From Escherichia coli (GTDB taxonomy: Bacteria > Pseudomonadota > Gammaproteobacteria > Enterobacterales > Enterobacteriaceae): a stretch of DNA of 64,000 nt. The translations under genes and the position numbers were made by a program. Under the pieces are notes generated by a model. That model ran no database searches. It saw nothing but the letters and a program-made list of their open reading frames with translations, and was not told the origin of the DNA. The stretch lies in NCBI RefSeq assembly GCF_044324875.1, contig NZ_CP172185.1; one strand, 5' to 3'. Positions 1,957-31,149 of this stretch are shown here, in pieces (position 1 is the first letter of the stretch; each line of letters starts with the position of its first letter).

Positions 1957-3282
1957 ATGAATAAATATCAGGCAGTTATTATTGGTTTTGGCAAGGCTGG
2001 AAAAACATTAGCCGTCACGCTGGCAAAAGCAGGTTGGCGTGTGGCTCTCATCGAACAATCAAATGCAATGTATGGCGGGACCTGTATTAATATCGGCTGC
2101 ATCCCAACCAAAACATTGGTTCATGACGCACAGCAGCACACAGATTTTGTCCGTGCCATACAGCGTAAAAATGAAGTGGTTAATTTTTTACGTAATAAGA
2201 ATTTTCATAATCTTGCGGATATGCCCAATATCGACGTGATCGACGGCCAGGCGGAGTTTATCAATAATCATAGCCTGCGTGTTCATCGGCCTGAGGGAAA
2301 TCTGGAAATTCATGGCGAGAAAATTTTTATTAATACCGGTGCACAAACCGTGGTTCCGCCAATTCCTGGAATTACCACCACGCCAGGAGTATATGACAGC
2401 ACCGGATTACTTAATCTAAAAGAATTGCCTGGGCATTTAGGTATTTTGGGCGGCGGATATATTGGCGTTGAGTTCGCCTCTATGTTCGCTAATTTTGGCA
2501 GCAAGGTAACCATTTTAGAAGCAGCTTCGCTGTTTTTGCCTCGGGAAGATCGGGATATTGCTGATAATATCGCGACGATTTTACGCGATCAGGGCGTCGA
2601 TATAATCCTCAATGCCCATGTGGAGCGAATCAGTCACCATGAAAATCAAGTGCAAGTGCATAGCGAGCACGCCCAACTGGCGGTGGATGCACTGTTAATA
2701 GCTTCCGGTCGTCAACCGGCTACCGCTTCGTTACATCCAGAAAATGCCGGTATCGCAGTAAACGAGCGCGGGGCAATTGTCGTTGACAAGCTATTACATA
2801 CCACCGCAGACAATATTTGGGCGATGGGAGATGTTACCGGCGGGCTGCAATTTACTTATATTTCACTGGATGATTACCGCATTGTGCGTGATGAGTTGCT
2901 GGGAGAAGGCAGACGTAGTACTGATGATCGGAAAAATGTGCCTTATTCCGTATTCATGACACCGCCACTGTCCCGGGTTGGTATGACAGAAGAACAGGCC
3001 AGAGAGAGTGGTGCTGATATTCAGGTGGTGACATTGCCTGTAGCTGCAATTCCGCGTGCCAGAGTGATGAACGATACCCGTGGGGTATTAAAAGCGATTG
3101 TTGATAATAAAACCCAACGTATATTAGGGGCATCACTGCTGTGTGTTGACTCCCACGAGATGATCAATATAGTGAAAATGGTGATGGATGCCGGGCTGCC
3201 TTATAGCATATTACGCGATCAGATATTTACTCATCCGTCGATGAGCGAATCACTCAATGATCTATTTTCATTAGTCAAATAA
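1957..3282 (+). CDS. rclA: Pyridine nucleotide-disulfide oxidoreductase RclA (441 aa from MNKYQAVIIGFGKAG)
   Basis: FAD-binding GxGxxG at N-terminus, CxxxxC redox motif (GTCINIGCIPTK), dimerisation domain. Confidence 0.9.
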   Translation: MNKYQAVIIGFGKAGKTLAVTLAKAGWRVALIEQSNAMYGGTCINIGCIPTKTLVHDAQQHTDFVRAIQRKNEVVNFLRNKNFHNLADMPNIDVIDGQAEFINNHSLRVHRPEGNLEIHGEKIFINTGAQTVVPPIPGITTTPGVYDSTGLLNLKELPGHLGILGGGYIGVEFASMFANFGSKVTILEAASLFLPREDRDIADNIATILRDQGVDIILNAHVERISHHENQVQVHSEHAQLAVDALLIASGRQPATASLHPENAGIAVNERGAIVVDKLLHTTADNIWAMGDVTGGLQFTYISLDDYRIVRDELLGEGRRSTDDRKNVPYSVFMTPPLSRVGMTEEQARESGADIQVVTLPVAAIPRARVMNDTRGVLKAIVDNKTQRILGASLLCVDSHEMINIVKMVMDAGLPYSILRDQIFTHPSMSESLNDLFSLVK

Positions 3283-3390
3283 ACTCAAAATCAGACGCCA
3301 GAACAAATATTCTGGCGTCTCAGAGAAAAGAATCTTATTAATTCCCTGTTACTTTATAACTTCTTAATCACTTCATTGATGGTATTTTAT

Positions 3391-3627
3391 ATGTTTAAAA
3401 AATCTGTTTTATTTGCAACACTATTATCTGGCGTTATGGCATTTTCCACCAATGCAGATGATAAAATAATTCTGAAACATATCAGCGTCTCGTCAGTATC
3501 AGCATCACCGACAGTTCTTGAGGATGCCATTGCTGATATAGCCAGAAAATATAATGCTTCATCCTGGAAAGTCACATCGATGCGAATTGATAATAATTCA
3601 ACCGCAACAGCAGTATTGTATAAATAA
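3391..3627 (+). CDS. rclB: Small periplasmic DUF1471-type protein RclB (78 aa, signal peptide)
   Basis: ORF 3376..3627, start trimmed to MFKKSVLFATLLSGVMAFS; follows rclA. Confidence 0.8.
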   Translation: MFKKSVLFATLLSGVMAFSTNADDKIILKHISVSSVSASPTVLEDAIADIARKYNASSWKVTSMRIDNNSTATAVLYK

Positions 3628-3638
3628 GGATGTTCACA

Positions 3639-4232
3639 ATGGAAAAATACCTGCACCTGTTAAGTCGGGGAGATAAAATTGGCCTGACATTGATTCGTCT
3701 GAGTATTGCGATTGTTTTTATGTGGATTGGGTTATTAAAGTTTGTCCCTTACGAGGCAGACAGCATTACACCATTCGTCGCAAACAGTCCACTAATGTCG
3801 TTCTTTTATGAACACCCGGAAGACTATAAACAGTATCTGACTCACGAAGGCGAATACAAACCAGAAGCAAGGGCATGGCAAACGGCCAATAATACCTATG
3901 GTTTTTCCAACGGTCTTGGCGTCGTGGAGGTGATTATTGCTCTGCTGGTTTTGGCTAATCCTGTCAATCGCTGGTTAGGTTTATTGGGAGGGCTGATGGC
4001 ATTTACCACACCGTTGGTAACACTCTCATTTTTAATCACCACCCCGGAGGCATGGGTACCCGCATTGGGTGACGCTCATCATGGTTTCCCTTATTTATCC
4101 GGTGCTGGTCGCCTGGTATTGAAAGATACTCTGATGCTGGCAGGTGCTGTCATGATAATGGCAGATTCGGCGCGGGAAATTCTTAAACAACGCAGTAATG
4201 AATCCAGTTCAACGTTAAAAACTGAATATTGA
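3639..4232 (+). CDS. rclC: Inner-membrane protein RclC (197 aa)
   Basis: ORF 3630..4232, start trimmed to MEKYLHLL; hydrophobic segments. Confidence 0.8.
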   Translation: MEKYLHLLSRGDKIGLTLIRLSIAIVFMWIGLLKFVPYEADSITPFVANSPLMSFFYEHPEDYKQYLTHEGEYKPEARAWQTANNTYGFSNGLGVVEVIIALLVLANPVNRWLGLLGGLMAFTTPLVTLSFLITTPEAWVPALGDAHHGFPYLSGAGRLVLKDTLMLAGAVMIMADSAREILKQRSNESSSTLKTEY

Positions 4233-6486: not shown

Positions 6487-9400
6487 TTATTTCATCGCCT
6501 CCTCGCCCTTTGCCGTATCGGCATCCACCGCGGTAATGGTCACCGTCACTGGCTTCATTTCGTACCCGCCATACGTCAGGGCGTTAAATGTAAACGTATA
6601 GACACCTGGCTTGTTGGTACTAAATGTACGCGTGATTTTTCCGCTCACGAAATGGTCATTTTTCGACGGCAGGAATTGATAATCCTTCTCCGTCACTCCT
6701 TCCGGCGTCTGAATGTCGACCCACACATTCCCCCCAACAGGGTTATTTGCCGAGAACAGGGTCACCTCCAGCTTCGCAGTCGATTTCCCATCCGCCACCA
6801 GCGATTGCACATCAGATGATGCGGCGAGCACCGCGTTTTTATCATCCGCGACGAATTTAGATTCAGCAGTTTTCGTCGATTCCTGACCGTTGGCCTGTTC
6901 CACTTTCGCCGTGAGTGTATATTTCGCTGCGACAGTGGTCGTGGCGGTGAAAATAGCCTGCCCTTGCTCATTAGTTTTCGCCGTCCCATCGGGATCCAGA
7001 GCTAAATTTGCCGGGCTGGCAGTCAGCGTCACCTCGCTATCTTTCAACAGGTTGTTATTGGCATCAGTCACCGTAACTTTATACGTCTGTTTGGCTTTGC
7101 CATCCGCCAGTGCATAGTTGCCAATCACCTCAATACCGGAGACGGTTGCGGTCGCCTTATCGGCCACAAACGTTATAGTCTGCGCATCCGAAGGCTGGTC
7201 ATTTCCTGCCGACGCCGTGATCTCATAGGTTCCGGCAGTCACGGAAACCACCTGCAACTCTGCTTTCCCCTCATCGTTGGCTTTCACCCAGACATTATCG
7301 CCAGTAAGCGGCTTGACACCTCGGGGCAGATTAAAGGTCACCAGAGTGCCTGGAACAGGGTTACCGTTTTTATCCTCAACGGTCGCCGTCAGCGTAAAGG
7401 CATCTTTGCCGTTTGCCACTTTTTGAGCAGCGGCGTCTACCTCCAGGCTCGCCTGACCGGTGCTGGCATCCGCGTTGAATTTCACCGTGACCGTCTTCTG
7501 AGAGTTTTTCACCGCGGCCTCGATCTCAAGTTCCCCGGCAACCGTTGACATCAGCTCAATGTCAGCTTTACCTGCCGTATTGGTTGTTACCGTATTCCCC
7601 GTCTTGCTGGTCACACCCTGCGGTAAAGTCAGCGTAACTTCTTGCCCCTGCAACGGGTTACCATAGCTGTCCACGACGGTCAGGGTTATCTGGTTAGCAG
7701 ACTGTCCATTTGCCAGTTGGTTATTCACCTTCACCGCCATATCACTGATCACTGCCCGGGAAGCGTCGCCTGCAACATTCAGCACCAGTGGCTGAGCAAC
7801 GGCATTTAGGCCGTTCACGCGTGGCATCACAGACAACTGACCCGCGGCAGATCCCAGCGTTAAGGTCGACACGTAGACCCCATTACCTTTCTCTGTCCAG
7901 TTTCCTGCTGAAGGACGCTCACTCCCCGTGCTGGCGGCACCGCTAAACACTGGTGCATCTGGCTTCAGCCCGGTGACCGGGTTCCCGTACGCATCCTTCA
8001 CGGTGAAGGTGAGTTCCGTCGTCGTTTTAACCGTTGGAGTCTTATTGTCCGCAACAAGCGTAGAGTTAGCTGATGACATCTCTCCAGCGATGACCGTCAA
8101 CTGCGCGGCTTCGGTGGCTGCTGGCTGGCCGTTGAAGAGAGGCATGACGCGAAGCTCGCCCGTCTTTCCGCCTGTAGTCAACGTAGCAACATAGGAACCG
8201 TCACCTTTTTCGGTCCAACTGGAAACGGTCGCCCCTTCAGAGGCGGTCCCCGTCAAACTTGCCGACAACGAAAGACCACTGATAGCGTTGCCATGTGCAT
8301 CTTTTGCAATAAGCGTCACGGTTGTGCTTTCGCCGGCTTTTACGTGATCTTCTGCGACGGAGACTTTCGACTGGTTTGAAGATAACGCATCAGCCACCAC
8401 GGTTACTTTTGCCGCATTTGCTGCCGCATCCTGTCCATTTAGCTTCGGCATAACTTCTAATTCACCCGCCGTAGAGCCGAGAGTAATCTGCGCAGTCCAC
8501 GTCCCATCACCATTATTTGTCCAGCCCGATGCCGTAGAACCTACAGCAGCGGCACCCGCTAATGACGGCGCTTCCGGCGTGAGGCTGGTCACTGGGTTGT
8601 CATAGGCATCTTTTGCCGTCCAGATTGCCGTAACTGTACCGCCAACCACCGGTTTATCAGGATTCAGTGTGATGGACGAATGTGCTGCATCAAGCGGCCC
8701 GGCAACAAACTTCAGCGTTTGTTGTAATGTGCCCAGCTGATACTGCTCGCTGAAAGCACGCACAACAACGTTTCCGGCACGGGTCGAAGAAACCGTGGCG
8801 CTGTAAACGCCTGGTTTTATTTCCGAAATGGCACCAACGGTTACACCATTAGTGTCTTGCGGAACAAATCGCAAGCGGCTGGCTTCTCCCGTCACCGGAT
8901 TACCCTCGGAGTCCACCGCAGTCAACGTCAACGTATAGGCTTGCTGACCATCAGCAACCACGTCACCTGACGGCTCGTTAGCGCTCAGGGTGGAGTTTGC
9001 CACATCCATCATCGTGGCCCGCAGTTCTGCAGTGACGGTTTTGCTCATGCCATCAACGCTAACAGTAATCGTTGCCTCACCTGACTGCGTTCCGGTAGTA
9101 AAGACAGACTGATACACCCCTGCTTCAGTTTCGGTGAACTCACCCAGTGTTGGCTTTGCCTGTGATTTAGTGGCCTTCAGGGAACGAGTCACAATATTTC
9201 CAGCCGGTTTGAAAGTTAGTTCAGTCTTGATCTGATCTTTCATGCCCGTGACTGGCTGGCCCTCGGCGTCGCGCAGAGACAGCACCAGCGGCTTTTGCTC
9301 ATTACCGTTAGCAAGCATTTGAATACGGCTCTGACCGTCAAGCGTTAACGCCGTACGATCGGCGCTCATACCAGCTCCGGTAATAACCACTTCTGTCTGC

Positions 9401-10740
9401 ACACGTTTCGAGGCATTGCCTTTGTTATCGTAGGCAACTGCTGAAATCGCATAATAATTGTCTTTGCCTGGACGGTAAGCCGGGAGCGTCACTTGCCACT
9501 GATTGCCCTGTCCCGTAATTTTTCCGCCAGCGGCCAGCAAAGACGGCGCTTCCCATTGCACATTTTTCAGACCGTGAGTTGCTTTGCTGACCACAAGCCC
9601 CAGGGAAACCGTCTGGCCGCCCTTGCCTTCAATACGCTCAGGCAGAGCAATACGAATCACTTCAGATTTGCGGTACTCAAGAACGATGTTGTTATTACGC
9701 TCAACCAGGTCATAGCGGCTGCCTGCCAGCATTCGACGCTCGCGAATACTGTCTGTATCGAGTTGTTTTTCCAGAGGTTCGCCAATCCGATAATTAACTT
9801 CCAGGCCAAAGCGAGTGTCATTCTCACCACTCTTGCCCTGCTTATGCCCAGCACTCAGGGTCAGAAGAGGCACTGGCGTGTAATTCACTTCAGCGGTAAT
9901 CGCATGTGGATCTTTCTGGCGTTTATCTTTACCAAACAGCCCGACTTCATCGCCATAATACTGTTCATACATCAGGCTTGCGCCAAGCTGCGGCCAGGCA
10001 GGTAAATAGCCCTCAGCACGAATATCCCAGCCATTCGCCGGGCGTTCCTGATAATCCTCAACATCCGGCGATTTTTTCCAGCCAGAAGCCCGGATATAAC
10101 CATTGGCGCTCAGTTTCAAATAATCACGCCAGTATTCCGCACCAACACCAATGCGGGTATGACTACGGGATAAATCATGGTCGATAAAGGTGTTCACCCC
10201 CGCCATCCAGTCATTTCCTGAAAAATGACGCCAGCCAAAACCAATATTTGACTGAGTACGATCGTCGGTACGATGTATTGCCCCCTGAGTGAACAACATA
10301 TTTGTCGGCGTATCATAAATCGGATAAAGCATTTCCAGCGAAGAGTCCTTCAGCGAGAATTCTTTATCGACATTCAGTTTGACGCGCGCAGTACCATATT
10401 TCCCGAGCCACTCCTGTATTTCCTGGTTAGCTTTAGCTGTGGCCATTCCGGTAATAAAGTTACGTGTCGCATCGCTATCTGGCTGACTGCTTAAAAATGT
10501 CCCGGCATTTGCGGCAAACGACGCGACATTTTTCTCCACATTATTATCAGCAGCTACTGTGGTATTTTCCATGCTCAAACGTGGCTGAACTGCATGCTGC
10601 GCGCGTGCTGCCATTACTGGGGTAAAGGTGACAGCGAGTGGGAAAAGAACCTGAACAGAGATATTTGCCCACGCCACGCAGCGGGCCAGAACTGAATAAC
10701 GAAATCGTGGTTGTTTATGACCTGTTTTATAACGTGACAT
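6487..10740 (-). CDS. eaeH: Intimin/invasin-family outer-membrane adhesin, full length (1417 aa)
   Basis: N-terminal signal peptide, beta-barrel region, long run of Ig-like repeats rich in TLT/VTA motifs; one uninterrupted ORF. Confidence 0.85.
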   Translation of the reverse strand: MSRYKTGHKQPRFRYSVLARCVAWANISVQVLFPLAVTFTPVMAARAQHAVQPRLSMENTTVAADNNVEKNVASFAANAGTFLSSQPDSDATRNFITGMATAKANQEIQEWLGKYGTARVKLNVDKEFSLKDSSLEMLYPIYDTPTNMLFTQGAIHRTDDRTQSNIGFGWRHFSGNDWMAGVNTFIDHDLSRSHTRIGVGAEYWRDYLKLSANGYIRASGWKKSPDVEDYQERPANGWDIRAEGYLPAWPQLGASLMYEQYYGDEVGLFGKDKRQKDPHAITAEVNYTPVPLLTLSAGHKQGKSGENDTRFGLEVNYRIGEPLEKQLDTDSIRERRMLAGSRYDLVERNNNIVLEYRKSEVIRIALPERIEGKGGQTVSLGLVVSKATHGLKNVQWEAPSLLAAGGKITGQGNQWQVTLPAYRPGKDNYYAISAVAYDNKGNASKRVQTEVVITGAGMSADRTALTLDGQSRIQMLANGNEQKPLVLSLRDAEGQPVTGMKDQIKTELTFKPAGNIVTRSLKATKSQAKPTLGEFTETEAGVYQSVFTTGTQSGEATITVSVDGMSKTVTAELRATMMDVANSTLSANEPSGDVVADGQQAYTLTLTAVDSEGNPVTGEASRLRFVPQDTNGVTVGAISEIKPGVYSATVSSTRAGNVVVRAFSEQYQLGTLQQTLKFVAGPLDAAHSSITLNPDKPVVGGTVTAIWTAKDAYDNPVTSLTPEAPSLAGAAAVGSTASGWTNNGDGTWTAQITLGSTAGELEVMPKLNGQDAAANAAKVTVVADALSSNQSKVSVAEDHVKAGESTTVTLIAKDAHGNAISGLSLSASLTGTASEGATVSSWTEKGDGSYVATLTTGGKTGELRVMPLFNGQPAATEAAQLTVIAGEMSSANSTLVADNKTPTVKTTTELTFTVKDAYGNPVTGLKPDAPVFSGAASTGSERPSAGNWTEKGNGVYVSTLTLGSAAGQLSVMPRVNGLNAVAQPLVLNVAGDASRAVISDMAVKVNNQLANGQSANQITLTVVDSYGNPLQGQEVTLTLPQGVTSKTGNTVTTNTAGKADIELMSTVAGELEIEAAVKNSQKTVTVKFNADASTGQASLEVDAAAQKVANGKDAFTLTATVEDKNGNPVPGTLVTFNLPRGVKPLTGDNVWVKANDEGKAELQVVSVTAGTYEITASAGNDQPSDAQTITFVADKATATVSGIEVIGNYALADGKAKQTYKVTVTDANNNLLKDSEVTLTASPANLALDPDGTAKTNEQGQAIFTATTTVAAKYTLTAKVEQANGQESTKTAESKFVADDKNAVLAASSDVQSLVADGKSTAKLEVTLFSANNPVGGNVWVDIQTPEGVTEKDYQFLPSKNDHFVSGKITRTFSTNKPGVYTFTFNALTYGGYEMKPVTVTITAVDADTAKGEEAMK

Positions 10741-11290
10741 TGAGATAATTTCCTGATGAACGAATTAACGAACATAGGCAGACACAAATAATGGCGTCTG
10801 CTTGTCAGAAAAACCGGGGATTTCCCGGTTTCCTTTTCCGCAGAAAAGGAAATACCTTTATGTAAGAAAGTACACCGCCACCTAATATATCCAGTGTCTG
10901 TAGCCACTCATCAGGTGGTTGGGCGCGGGATTATATTTTTATTTATGGGTAAAAATTTAGCTTTTTGTGCAAGTTATTAAATAGATACTTAAGTTATATT
11001 TCTTACTCTGCGGGCAGTGAATAATTCATTATTAAGAGTGAATAATAATGACCTGTCTTTAATTAATCGCTATTGGGAATACGTCGAAGTAGGTATATAC
11101 ACCAGGATAAACCAATATATTTTTTATGGATATTCATTTTTCTTCATCAGACTGTGAATTGCAGGGATATCGAACTTGCACGACTCATCGCAACACTCAA
11201 GCAGATTTATGAATTTCGTTCATAACCCCTGACAAATCCTGCCGTCTAATCGAGCTCTTCCCTTTACGTTATGCTTCTCATGAACGATAA

Positions 11291-13581
<2,291 letters not shown>

Positions 13582-30901: not shown

Positions 30902-31149
30902 ATATGCAATAATTAATTGCACTGCCCCGCCAGCTATAATCGCGGGGCTTCGTTTTTCAGGGATAACAAAACCCGAAACTTCTTCCATCTGCCAGCAACA
31001 ATGCCTCTTCCTCTATAGTGTTCTCCGGATCTACAGCATCCTGAAGTAGCGCGATGTACTCATTGGCTATCTGCATCAGAAAGTTAAAAACAATGTTTTT
31101 AACCTATAAAAATGGCGCTGTATTTGCGCCATTTTTATCATTCAATGCA

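Follow-up and report, generated by a model that had tools for sequence, protein, structure and literature searches.

In fourU RNA thermometers, such as that of Salmonella agsA, a run of U residues pairs with the AGGA of the ribosome-binding site, and expression rises with temperature. The 3′ module of Hfq-binding small RNAs is a double hairpin followed by poly-U. For the autotransporter Ag43, the long leader RNA of its gene agn43 (flu) reportedly limits expression after transcription has started (Wallecha et al. 2014, J Bacteriol 196:2728). The leader-peptide attenuators of trp and his carry a terminator hairpin in the leader upstream of the regulated gene, and in systems of the BglG/SacY type the RAT hairpin stands immediately 5′ of a terminator and overlaps its 5′ arm. 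Transcript 3′ ends within 5′ UTRs are common in E. coli (PMC7815308), and they include terminators in which a G+C-rich hairpin and a U-run lie between the promoter and the start codon (Adams et al. 2021, PMC7815308).

Here we describe a leader upstream of the adhesin gene fdeC that can be compared with each of these systems. With the E. coli 5′-UTR terminators it shares the hairpin, the U-run and their position, and it would likewise give a short leader RNA and lower downstream expression; their 3′ ends have been mapped, whereas we infer that of fdeC. As in the case of agn43, the leader precedes the gene of an E. coli type V adhesin, and the two leaders have no sequence relation. Like the trp and his leaders it contains a terminator-like hairpin, but it has neither a conserved leader peptide nor a mutually exclusive antiterminator helix. 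Its first hairpin, like RAT, lies directly 5′ of the terminator-like hairpin and overlaps the 5′ arm of the latter, by 3 nt, but it is stable in its own right and leaves the G-C core of the second hairpin uncontested, and no RAT sequence or linked antiterminator gene was noticed. Two adjacent hairpins, an upstream U-rich stretch and a U-tail are shared with the Hfq 3′ module, although the tail has only 5 consecutive U. The predicted pairing of the U-tract with the ribosome-binding site recalls the fourU thermometers, but it joins segments ~50 nt apart instead of closing one local hairpin, and no clear melting step was seen in modelling.

FdeC is a broadly conserved adhesin and a vaccine candidate. 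It can hardly be detected in standard culture, and its appearance is brought about by host contact, by temperatures of at least 39 °C, or by alkaline pH (PMC3324786; PMC11143625). Its known control consists of H-NS silencing and an unexplained temperature effect. In the literature covered by our search we found no description of the leader element, nor an entry in the RNA family database, and the element is best filed as a leader RNA with a putative intrinsic terminator. If a conserved leader combined a terminator with a masked ribosome-binding site, the control of fdeC would gain a concrete step after initiation that can be put to the test, and type V adhesins would gain a further case of regulation by a leader. 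The element also points to specific bases whose mutation could permit FdeC expression at will. We regard the interest of the element as moderate, because it gives a concrete handle on why this vaccine candidate is hard to express.

Genomic context of fdeC

The DNA that we analysed is a stretch of 64 kb (the window), and the 801 bases around the hairpins are 100% identical to Escherichia coli 042 (NC_017626). According to the ORF list and the RefSeq annotation of 042, fdeC occupies 6487..10740 on the minus strand and encodes an intact inverse autotransporter adhesin of 1417 aa, with its ATG at 10740; eaeH is the older gene name. K-12 keeps the same intergenic region, and its eaeH is interrupted by IS3, in agreement with the original prediction that the gene is intact here and a pseudogene in K-12. 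An annotated aldo/keto reductase gene starts at 11306 and is divergent to fdeC, and the 565 nt from 10741 to 11305 form a divergent intergenic region. Therefore, there is no fdeC-strand gene in need of a terminator, and the annotation bears out the earlier remark that no gene lies upstream on that strand. The same was found in other genomes: in two, probably three, differing upstream contexts the hairpins terminate no upstream gene.

The G+C content is 24-33% over 10950..11150, an AT-rich trough that holds the promoter block described below. This fits the published H-NS silencing of the eaeH/fdeC locus, which was reported for K-12 (PMC4191405) and also by Easton 2014, as cited in PMC11143625.

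Anatomy of the tandem hairpins

Two adjacent stem-loops are located 71-112 nt 5′ of the fdeC ATG on the sense strand of the gene. They had been placed originally at 10829..10854 and 10811..10831, some 70-110 nt upstream of the start codon, and we find these coordinates and the distance (71 to 112 nt) to be correct, with both stem-loops folding on the minus strand. Hairpin 1 (10852..10829, minus strand) has the sequence TTTCCTTTTC-TGCG-GAAAAGGAAA and forms 10 perfect pairs with a free energy of -12.0 kcal/mol. Hairpin 2 (10831..10811, minus strand; AAACCGGG-AAATC-CCCGGTTT) is terminator-like, with 8 perfect pairs, 5 of them G-C, and -11.6 kcal/mol. The AAA at 10831..10829 is common to both. Hairpin 2 is followed by TTCTGA, and the T-rich run comprises T10813..T10809, then C, then T. 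The TTTTTCT that had been described after the second stem-loop is therefore present when the last three Ts of the stem are included in the count.

When the 565-nt intergenic region was shuffled 2000 times with its dinucleotides preserved, 0.5% of the shuffles contained a perfect hairpin of at least 10 bp, and none contained two adjacent hairpins of at least 8 bp. Folding of 10800..10930 gave a z-score of -4.3 for the sense strand vs. -1.8 for the antisense strand, and the whole leader (10926..10711) reached -5.0. The RNA folding that had been proposed as a check of the original prediction thus reveals a stable minus-strand structure, and the hairpins are real and non-random. The resemblance to a terminator is by itself weak evidence, since a lenient “hairpin plus T-run” motif is non-specific, with 9 matches in the window (8 besides this site), mostly intragenic. 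Hairpin 2 escaped the built-in promoter and terminator scan, probably through extension of the stem into the T-run, and the only entry of the scan was a weak version of hairpin 1 on the plus strand. The scan also missed the TATAAT of the promoter block, because the -35 element is poor.

A predicted structured leader of about 185 nt

The two hairpins are part of a larger conserved unit, probably a structured 5′ leader of the fdeC mRNA of ~185 nt. Its parts are arranged in the order TATAAT, structured 5′ domain, hairpins 1 and 2, hairpin 3, ribosome-binding region and ATG. That the unit also comprises a promoter block, a 5′ domain and a third hairpin, and that the U-tract is complementary to the ribosome-binding site, had escaped the first reading of this DNA.

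An invariant block of 20 nt, CTTGCACAAAAAGCTAAATT (10954..10973, minus strand), bounds the conserved fdeC module on its upstream side and is identical in 042, K-12, Escherichia sp. E1V33, E. whittamii and the E69 lineage. The centre of this block lies ~40 nt 5′ of the putative transcription start, and it may represent an activator site, possibly for an unnamed activator, or an UP-type site. Readings of the promoter block as a sigma-32, sigma-54, CRP or FNR site were rejected, all four being poor matches by eye to the consensus sequences. A perfect -10 hexamer, TATAAT, is found at 10935..10930 on the minus strand; together with its flanking AAAAATATAATCCCG it is invariant in all lineages, and it has a weak or unrecognisable -35. 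From this hexamer, the likely fdeC promoter, we infer a transcription start near 10924. The distance from TTGCAC to TATAAT is fixed at 31 nt in the distant ortholog L158, which is described below, and in the nearer lineages.

The structured 5′ domain (P0, 10872..10924, minus strand) is a long irregular helix derived with RNAalifold, in which 3 pairs are changed on both sides. In the E69 lineage and in L158 its sequence identity is 39-67%, yet a stable 5′ stem structure is formed, although the exact pairing differs between lineages. A mini-ORF of 5 codons (GTG TAC TTT CTT ACA TAA, 10875..10858, minus strand) stops 5 nt before hairpin 1. Both E. coli and the E69 lineage retain it, the start being ATG in E69 and the stop TGA in one contig.

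Downstream of the stem of hairpin 2, the T-run and its tail, TTTTTCTGA (10805..10813, minus strand), would provide a terminator U-tract and a candidate anti-Shine-Dalgarno sequence. Hairpin 3 follows at 10801..10778 on the minus strand (GCAGACGC-CATTATTT-GTGTCTGC; -12.4 kcal/mol). The ~35 nt before the start codon (10741..10776, minus strand) are nearly invariant and include the Shine-Dalgarno sequence AGGA at 10754..10751. This region is identical in the five lineages 042, K-12, E1V33, E. whittamii and E69, which were retrieved by protein similarity and therefore were not selected on leader sequence.

Conservation within E. coli and near lineages

Of 5426 complete E. coli genomes, 5033 contain one copy of a 60-mer that spans hairpins 1 and 2. 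For the comparison of leaders we aligned those of 042, K-12, Escherichia sp. E1V33, E. whittamii and the divergent “E. coli” E69, all retrieved via the protein, and scanned metagenomes with the invariant ribosome-binding block as the anchor, which makes the search blind to the hairpins. The scan gave 117 loci, and together with the loci already collected these represent 34 distinct leader haplotypes. In E69-type lineages, the segment from hairpin 1 to the U-tract is 95-97% identical, vs. 86% for the coding DNA.

The stem of hairpin 1 is unchanged in every non-singleton haplotype, while its loop varies from TGCG to TGTG or TACG. All variants seen more than once within E. coli are either located in loops or convert a C-G pair to U.G. 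In hairpin 2 the loop AAATC is replaced by AAATT, AAATA or the inverted GATTT, and within E. coli its stem differs by the replacement of C with U opposite G, at positions 10828, 10818 and 10816. The G.U variants at 10828 (as in K-12) and 10816 are recurrent, and that at 10818 occurs in one contig. In all non-singleton variants hairpin 2 retains between -8 and -12 kcal/mol, and the changes that break a stem in E. coli are confined to single contigs (L043, L085, L102, L130, L061 and L086). The T-run and tail TTTTTCTGA are invariant in every lineage bar one singleton contig. The bases next to the T-run differ, being GGAGCAACC in L158 and CAAGCAGAC in 042.

The changes show a strand asymmetry. Changes that give G.U only outnumber those that give A.C by 13 to 3 over all helices (p = 0.01) and by 6 to 2 in hairpins 1-3 alone, which were defined independently of strand, the significance holding only with the RNAalifold-derived 5′ helix included. 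Hairpin 3 has a compensatory change from G-C to A-U in the E69 lineage, with a G.U intermediate in L038.

The C-to-U change at 10828, found in K-12 and others, turns a C-G pair of hairpin 2 into a weaker U.G pair and adds an 11th pair (A10853-U10828) to hairpin 1, and in this way slightly shifts the balance between the two overlapping hairpins. The inverted hairpin 2 loop (10819..10823, AAATC to GATTT) was seen together with C10828T in 15 metagenome contigs (loci L039, L042 and L110). This haplotype probably accounts for the 399 complete genomes that matched at 90-95% identity in the 60-mer search, and its loop looks like the product of a template-switch event at an inverted repeat that left the stem intact. 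In L086, a single metagenome contig, a deletion of 30 nt equivalent to 10837..10866 removes hairpin 1, and hairpin 2 and the T-run remain; an assembly error is possible.

Covariation in a distant ortholog

A protein search yielded a distant fdeC ortholog, L158 (GCA_051411795.1), whose N-terminal 400 residues match at 81% identity. At the DNA level, its coding sequence shares 75% identity with that of 042, and its flanking genes about 66%. Of the upstream block, L158 has 18 of the 20 nt (TTGCACAAAAAGCTAAATT), and it also retains the -10 region, with the spacing unchanged. Its hairpin 1 (TTTCCTTTCC-TTCT-GGAAAGGAAA) has a compensatory change from U-A to C-G and a new loop, and its hairpin 2 (AAACCGGA-ATATA-TCCGGTTT) has a compensatory change from G-C to A-U and likewise a new loop. 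The tail TTTTTCTGA is unchanged, a hairpin 3 of differing sequence is still formed at the same place, and the ~35 nt before the ATG contain one difference from 042. The folding z-score of the leader is -6.9. The segment from hairpin 1 to the U-tract retains 83% identity vs. 75% for the coding DNA, and the flanking parts of the leader only 39-50%. The 5′ domain and hairpin 3 therefore evolve faster than hairpins 1 and 2, with the structure retained.

In an alignment of 24 haplotypes, hairpins 1, 2 and 3 each have one pair that is changed on both sides, the compensatory changes in hairpins 1 and 2 stemming from the one divergent lineage L158 only. The fraction of paired cells is 98.7%, vs. 34-63% in controls with slid partners, and three or more two-sided pairs were obtained in 4 of 500 shuffles. 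The comparison of the aligned leaders shows that both the stems and the T-run are under selection.

The element appears to be specific to fdeC. When we looked for leaders like the hairpin unit upstream of other inverse autotransporter genes, the covariance model R1 found only fdeC orthologs. A leader terminator as a general feature of inverse autotransporters was rejected, with the sense-strand motif found in 1 of 32 non-orthologous loci (Pantoea, L011). In the Salmonella homolog (65% identity) the upstream region is unstructured (z = 0.2).

Upstream of the module, the neighbours differ. In E69 the flank contains a divergent glutamate-decarboxylase-like gene, and 042-like sequence begins abruptly at CTTGCACAAAAAGCTAAATT (10973..10954); beyond this block, the upstream sequences of E69 and L158 are unrelated to that of 042. 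These differing upstream genes beyond a conserved promoter block suggest that the fdeC module was moved, or its flank replaced, as a unit. Aldo/keto reductase genes are the neighbours in most E. coli, and a glutamate-decarboxylase-like gene is the neighbour in the E69-type loci L004, L051, L140 and L162. The upstream flank of L158 carries a small pair of HTH genes on the opposite strand and a decarboxylase-like gene.

Proposed attenuation of fdeC transcription

We hypothesize that the fdeC leader is a rho-independent attenuator of ~185 nt whose U-tract (UUUUCUGA) is also able to pair with the ribosome-binding site, and we assign this reading a probability of roughly 0.45. We favour it because of the terminator anatomy, the location on the transcribed strand 3′ of the sole conserved promoter-like block, and a U-tract that never varies. 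Hairpin 2 fits the stem-loop of an intrinsic terminator, with a G+C-rich stem of 8 bp and a loop of 5 nt (criterion 3-8 nt). The stable hairpin 1 lies directly upstream of hairpin 2 and UUUUUCU. Counted from the end of the G-C core, the U-tract reads UUUUUCU and is invariant, and it is shorter than in strong terminators.

In the proposed mechanism, transcription would start near 10924 from the invariant TATAAT, in an AT-rich region of the H-NS type, and the nascent RNA would fold in the order 5′ domain, hairpin 1, and hairpin 2 with its U-tract. Acting as a rho-independent terminator, hairpin 2 would end a share of the transcripts at ~10808..10805, ~67 nt before the ATG, and would thereby free a leader RNA of ~115-120 nt. 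In transcripts that read through, the U-tract and the following CUGA could pair with the ribosome-binding site. In this way fdeC would be held off twice, on top of H-NS silencing, until a presumed signal relieves the block. Since FdeC is silent in standard culture and induced by heat, tight control in several layers is to be expected. The conserved folded leader with its terminator-like hairpin probably helps to keep fdeC off.

The original prediction had offered an attenuator or a small-RNA terminator, and it is supported in part. As regards the attenuator, the terminator anatomy of hairpin 2 and the selection on stems and T-run speak for it, but a classical attenuator is not supported, as neither an antiterminator helix nor a regulatory leader peptide was found. 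The small-RNA terminator may also hold, since the RNA concerned would be physically identical with the short attenuated transcript. Neither the minimum-energy nor the centroid folds of 042, K-12, E. whittamii and L158 contained a competing antiterminator helix. The sole candidate for such a helix, UCCCG(G) beside the -10 hexamer, was discarded because it is probably located upstream of the transcription start. The mini-ORF at 10875..10858 was likewise rejected as a conserved leader peptide, as its frame is lost in L158, and it is probably not meaningful. A search of 10741-10935 for the RfaH ops element GGCGGTAGnnTG gave no match within 2 mismatches, and GGCGGTGTACTT at 10878..10867 was rejected as ops, having 3 mismatches in specified positions and being absent from L158. 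In the K-12 Term-seq tables (Adams 2021, PMC7815308) there is no 3′ end near 314290 or at eaeH, the locus being silent in K-12. Against attenuation count these negative results, and also the short U-run (5 U, C, U) and a promoter without a recognisable -35.

Possible masking of the ribosome-binding site and temperature

Could the leader act mainly on translation or mRNA stability? Hairpin 2 would then terminate little, the tandem hairpins may hold the pairing of UUUUCUGA with UCAGGAAA, and the U-tract would mask the ribosome-binding site. We consider this unlikely as the main function, though well worth keeping in view. In the predicted folds of the full-length leaders of both 042 and the distant L158, UUUUCUGA (10812..10805) pairs with UCAGGAAA (10756..10749), and the ATG region is paired as well. 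The CTGA after the T-run is invariant though the neighbouring bases differ, and a terminator alone would not need it; the nearly invariant ~35 nt before the ATG point in the same direction. Heat could loosen the pairing in a fourU-like manner, which would fit the induction of FdeC at 39-42 °C. FdeC, which is silent in standard culture, is induced in EHEC from 39 °C upwards and in APEC at 42 °C, in the latter case from a plasmid that bears fdeC with its own promoter sequence (PMC11143625).

On the other hand, modelling from 25 to 45 °C left the ribosome-binding site mostly paired throughout, with gradual opening and no sharp transition; its modelled probability of being unpaired is 0.03-0.17 at 37 °C vs. 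0.06-0.20 at 42 °C. The pairing is long-range and closes a multiloop, unlike that of known thermometers. Both partners, the U-tract and the ribosome-binding site, are invariant and so carry no information on covariation. Moreover, control of translation leaves the terminator-like appearance of hairpin 2 unexplained. The predicted folds suggest that attenuation and masking of the ribosome-binding site by the U-tract are compatible layers.

An improbable extension of this idea is a dual switch, in which UUUUUCUGA would serve both as the U-tract and as a heat-labile anti-Shine-Dalgarno sequence, so that 39-42 °C would relieve termination and translation together, and the product of ~115-120 nt would be a stable small RNA with targets of its own. 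If true, it would account for the confinement of FdeC to fever or avian body temperature even in the absence of H-NS.

Other explanations

Attenuation has to be weighed further against a small-RNA gene that extends from ~10924 to 10806 independently of fdeC, with hairpin 2 as its terminator, and with fdeC expressed from its own downstream promoter or by read-through. In layout the region resembles a small RNA: its 5′ domain is structured, a conserved A/U-rich stretch is single-stranded, and a double hairpin precedes a U-tail. Moreover, the segment of hairpins 1 and 2 is more conserved than the coding DNA. The 5 consecutive U in the tail are fewer than is typical of Hfq-dependent small RNAs, which counts against this explanation. 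The strict linkage to fdeC also argues against an independent small RNA: the element is always joined to fdeC and never occurs elsewhere. There is no convincing promoter between 10805 and the ATG, and neither Rfam nor the Term-seq tables of K-12 nor the RIL-seq tables of EPEC list such an RNA. A scan of 9500..12500 against Rfam 15 returned only the DUF2815 RNA, on the opposite strand, at 18.5 bits (gathering threshold 41.2, E = 5.1). We therefore regard an independent small RNA as decidedly improbable.

To a function at the level of DNA we give equally little credence. Hairpin 1 is a perfect 10-4-10 palindrome whose variation is only central or symmetric; it could equally be a DNA palindrome, an operator for a dimeric regulator, and this counts against attenuation. 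Likewise, hairpin 2 read on the plus strand precedes TTTCCTTTTCC and satisfies the lenient terminator test, and it might act, instead of or together with such an operator, as a two-way insulating terminator that keeps stray transcription in H-NS-silenced DNA away from fdeC and from the divergent genes. In either case the true promoter would lie downstream. However, hairpins 2 and 3 each carry G.U pairs at three stem sites, which preserve pairing in the sense RNA only and break the symmetry of the DNA, and the antisense strand folds less well (z = -1.8). No downstream promoter is evident, and the conserved promoter-like block is located upstream of the hairpins. The sense-only G.U pattern and the difference in folding between the strands thus argue against a DNA-level function, as does the strong conservation, and all three also argue against a relic.

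That the hairpins are a neutral relic, such as the terminator of a lost upstream gene, is most improbable: the locus is poorly expressed in the laboratory and no experimental function is known, but the hairpins outconserve the adjacent coding DNA across lineages with 75-86% coding identity, and they show compensatory changes next to an invariant U-tract. A dispersed repeat or mobile element (REP/BIME, ERIC, MITE) was rejected, given a median of one copy per genome, one copy in the window, and a covariance model that finds only fdeC leaders.

Additional observations

Two of the collected loci are unusual. In L155 (NZ_CP065615.1, E. coli FDAARGOS_943), at ~2540..3930, the IS4-like element ISEc60 is located within hairpin 2, an IS1 lies farther along, and fdeC is fragmented. 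In L161 (Logan contig SRR24798440_807), nearly every C is read as T in the 3′ part of the leader (e.g. TTTGTTAATTTGTTTATTAGG). This pattern is like that of bisulfite-treated or damaged DNA, and the locus was left out of the analysis.

Two further inverted repeats were noted in the window. The first, at 11026..11051 on the minus strand, is located in the AT-rich part of the intergenic region and consists of a perfect repeat of 9 bp with a loop of 8 nt (TCATTATTA...TAATAATGA); a direct repeat of ATTATTCACT adjoins it. The second, at 31108..31136, is a perfect repeat of 11 bp (AAAAATGGCGC-TGTATTT-GCGCCATTTTT) inside the coding region of paoC, and has the look of a two-way terminator.
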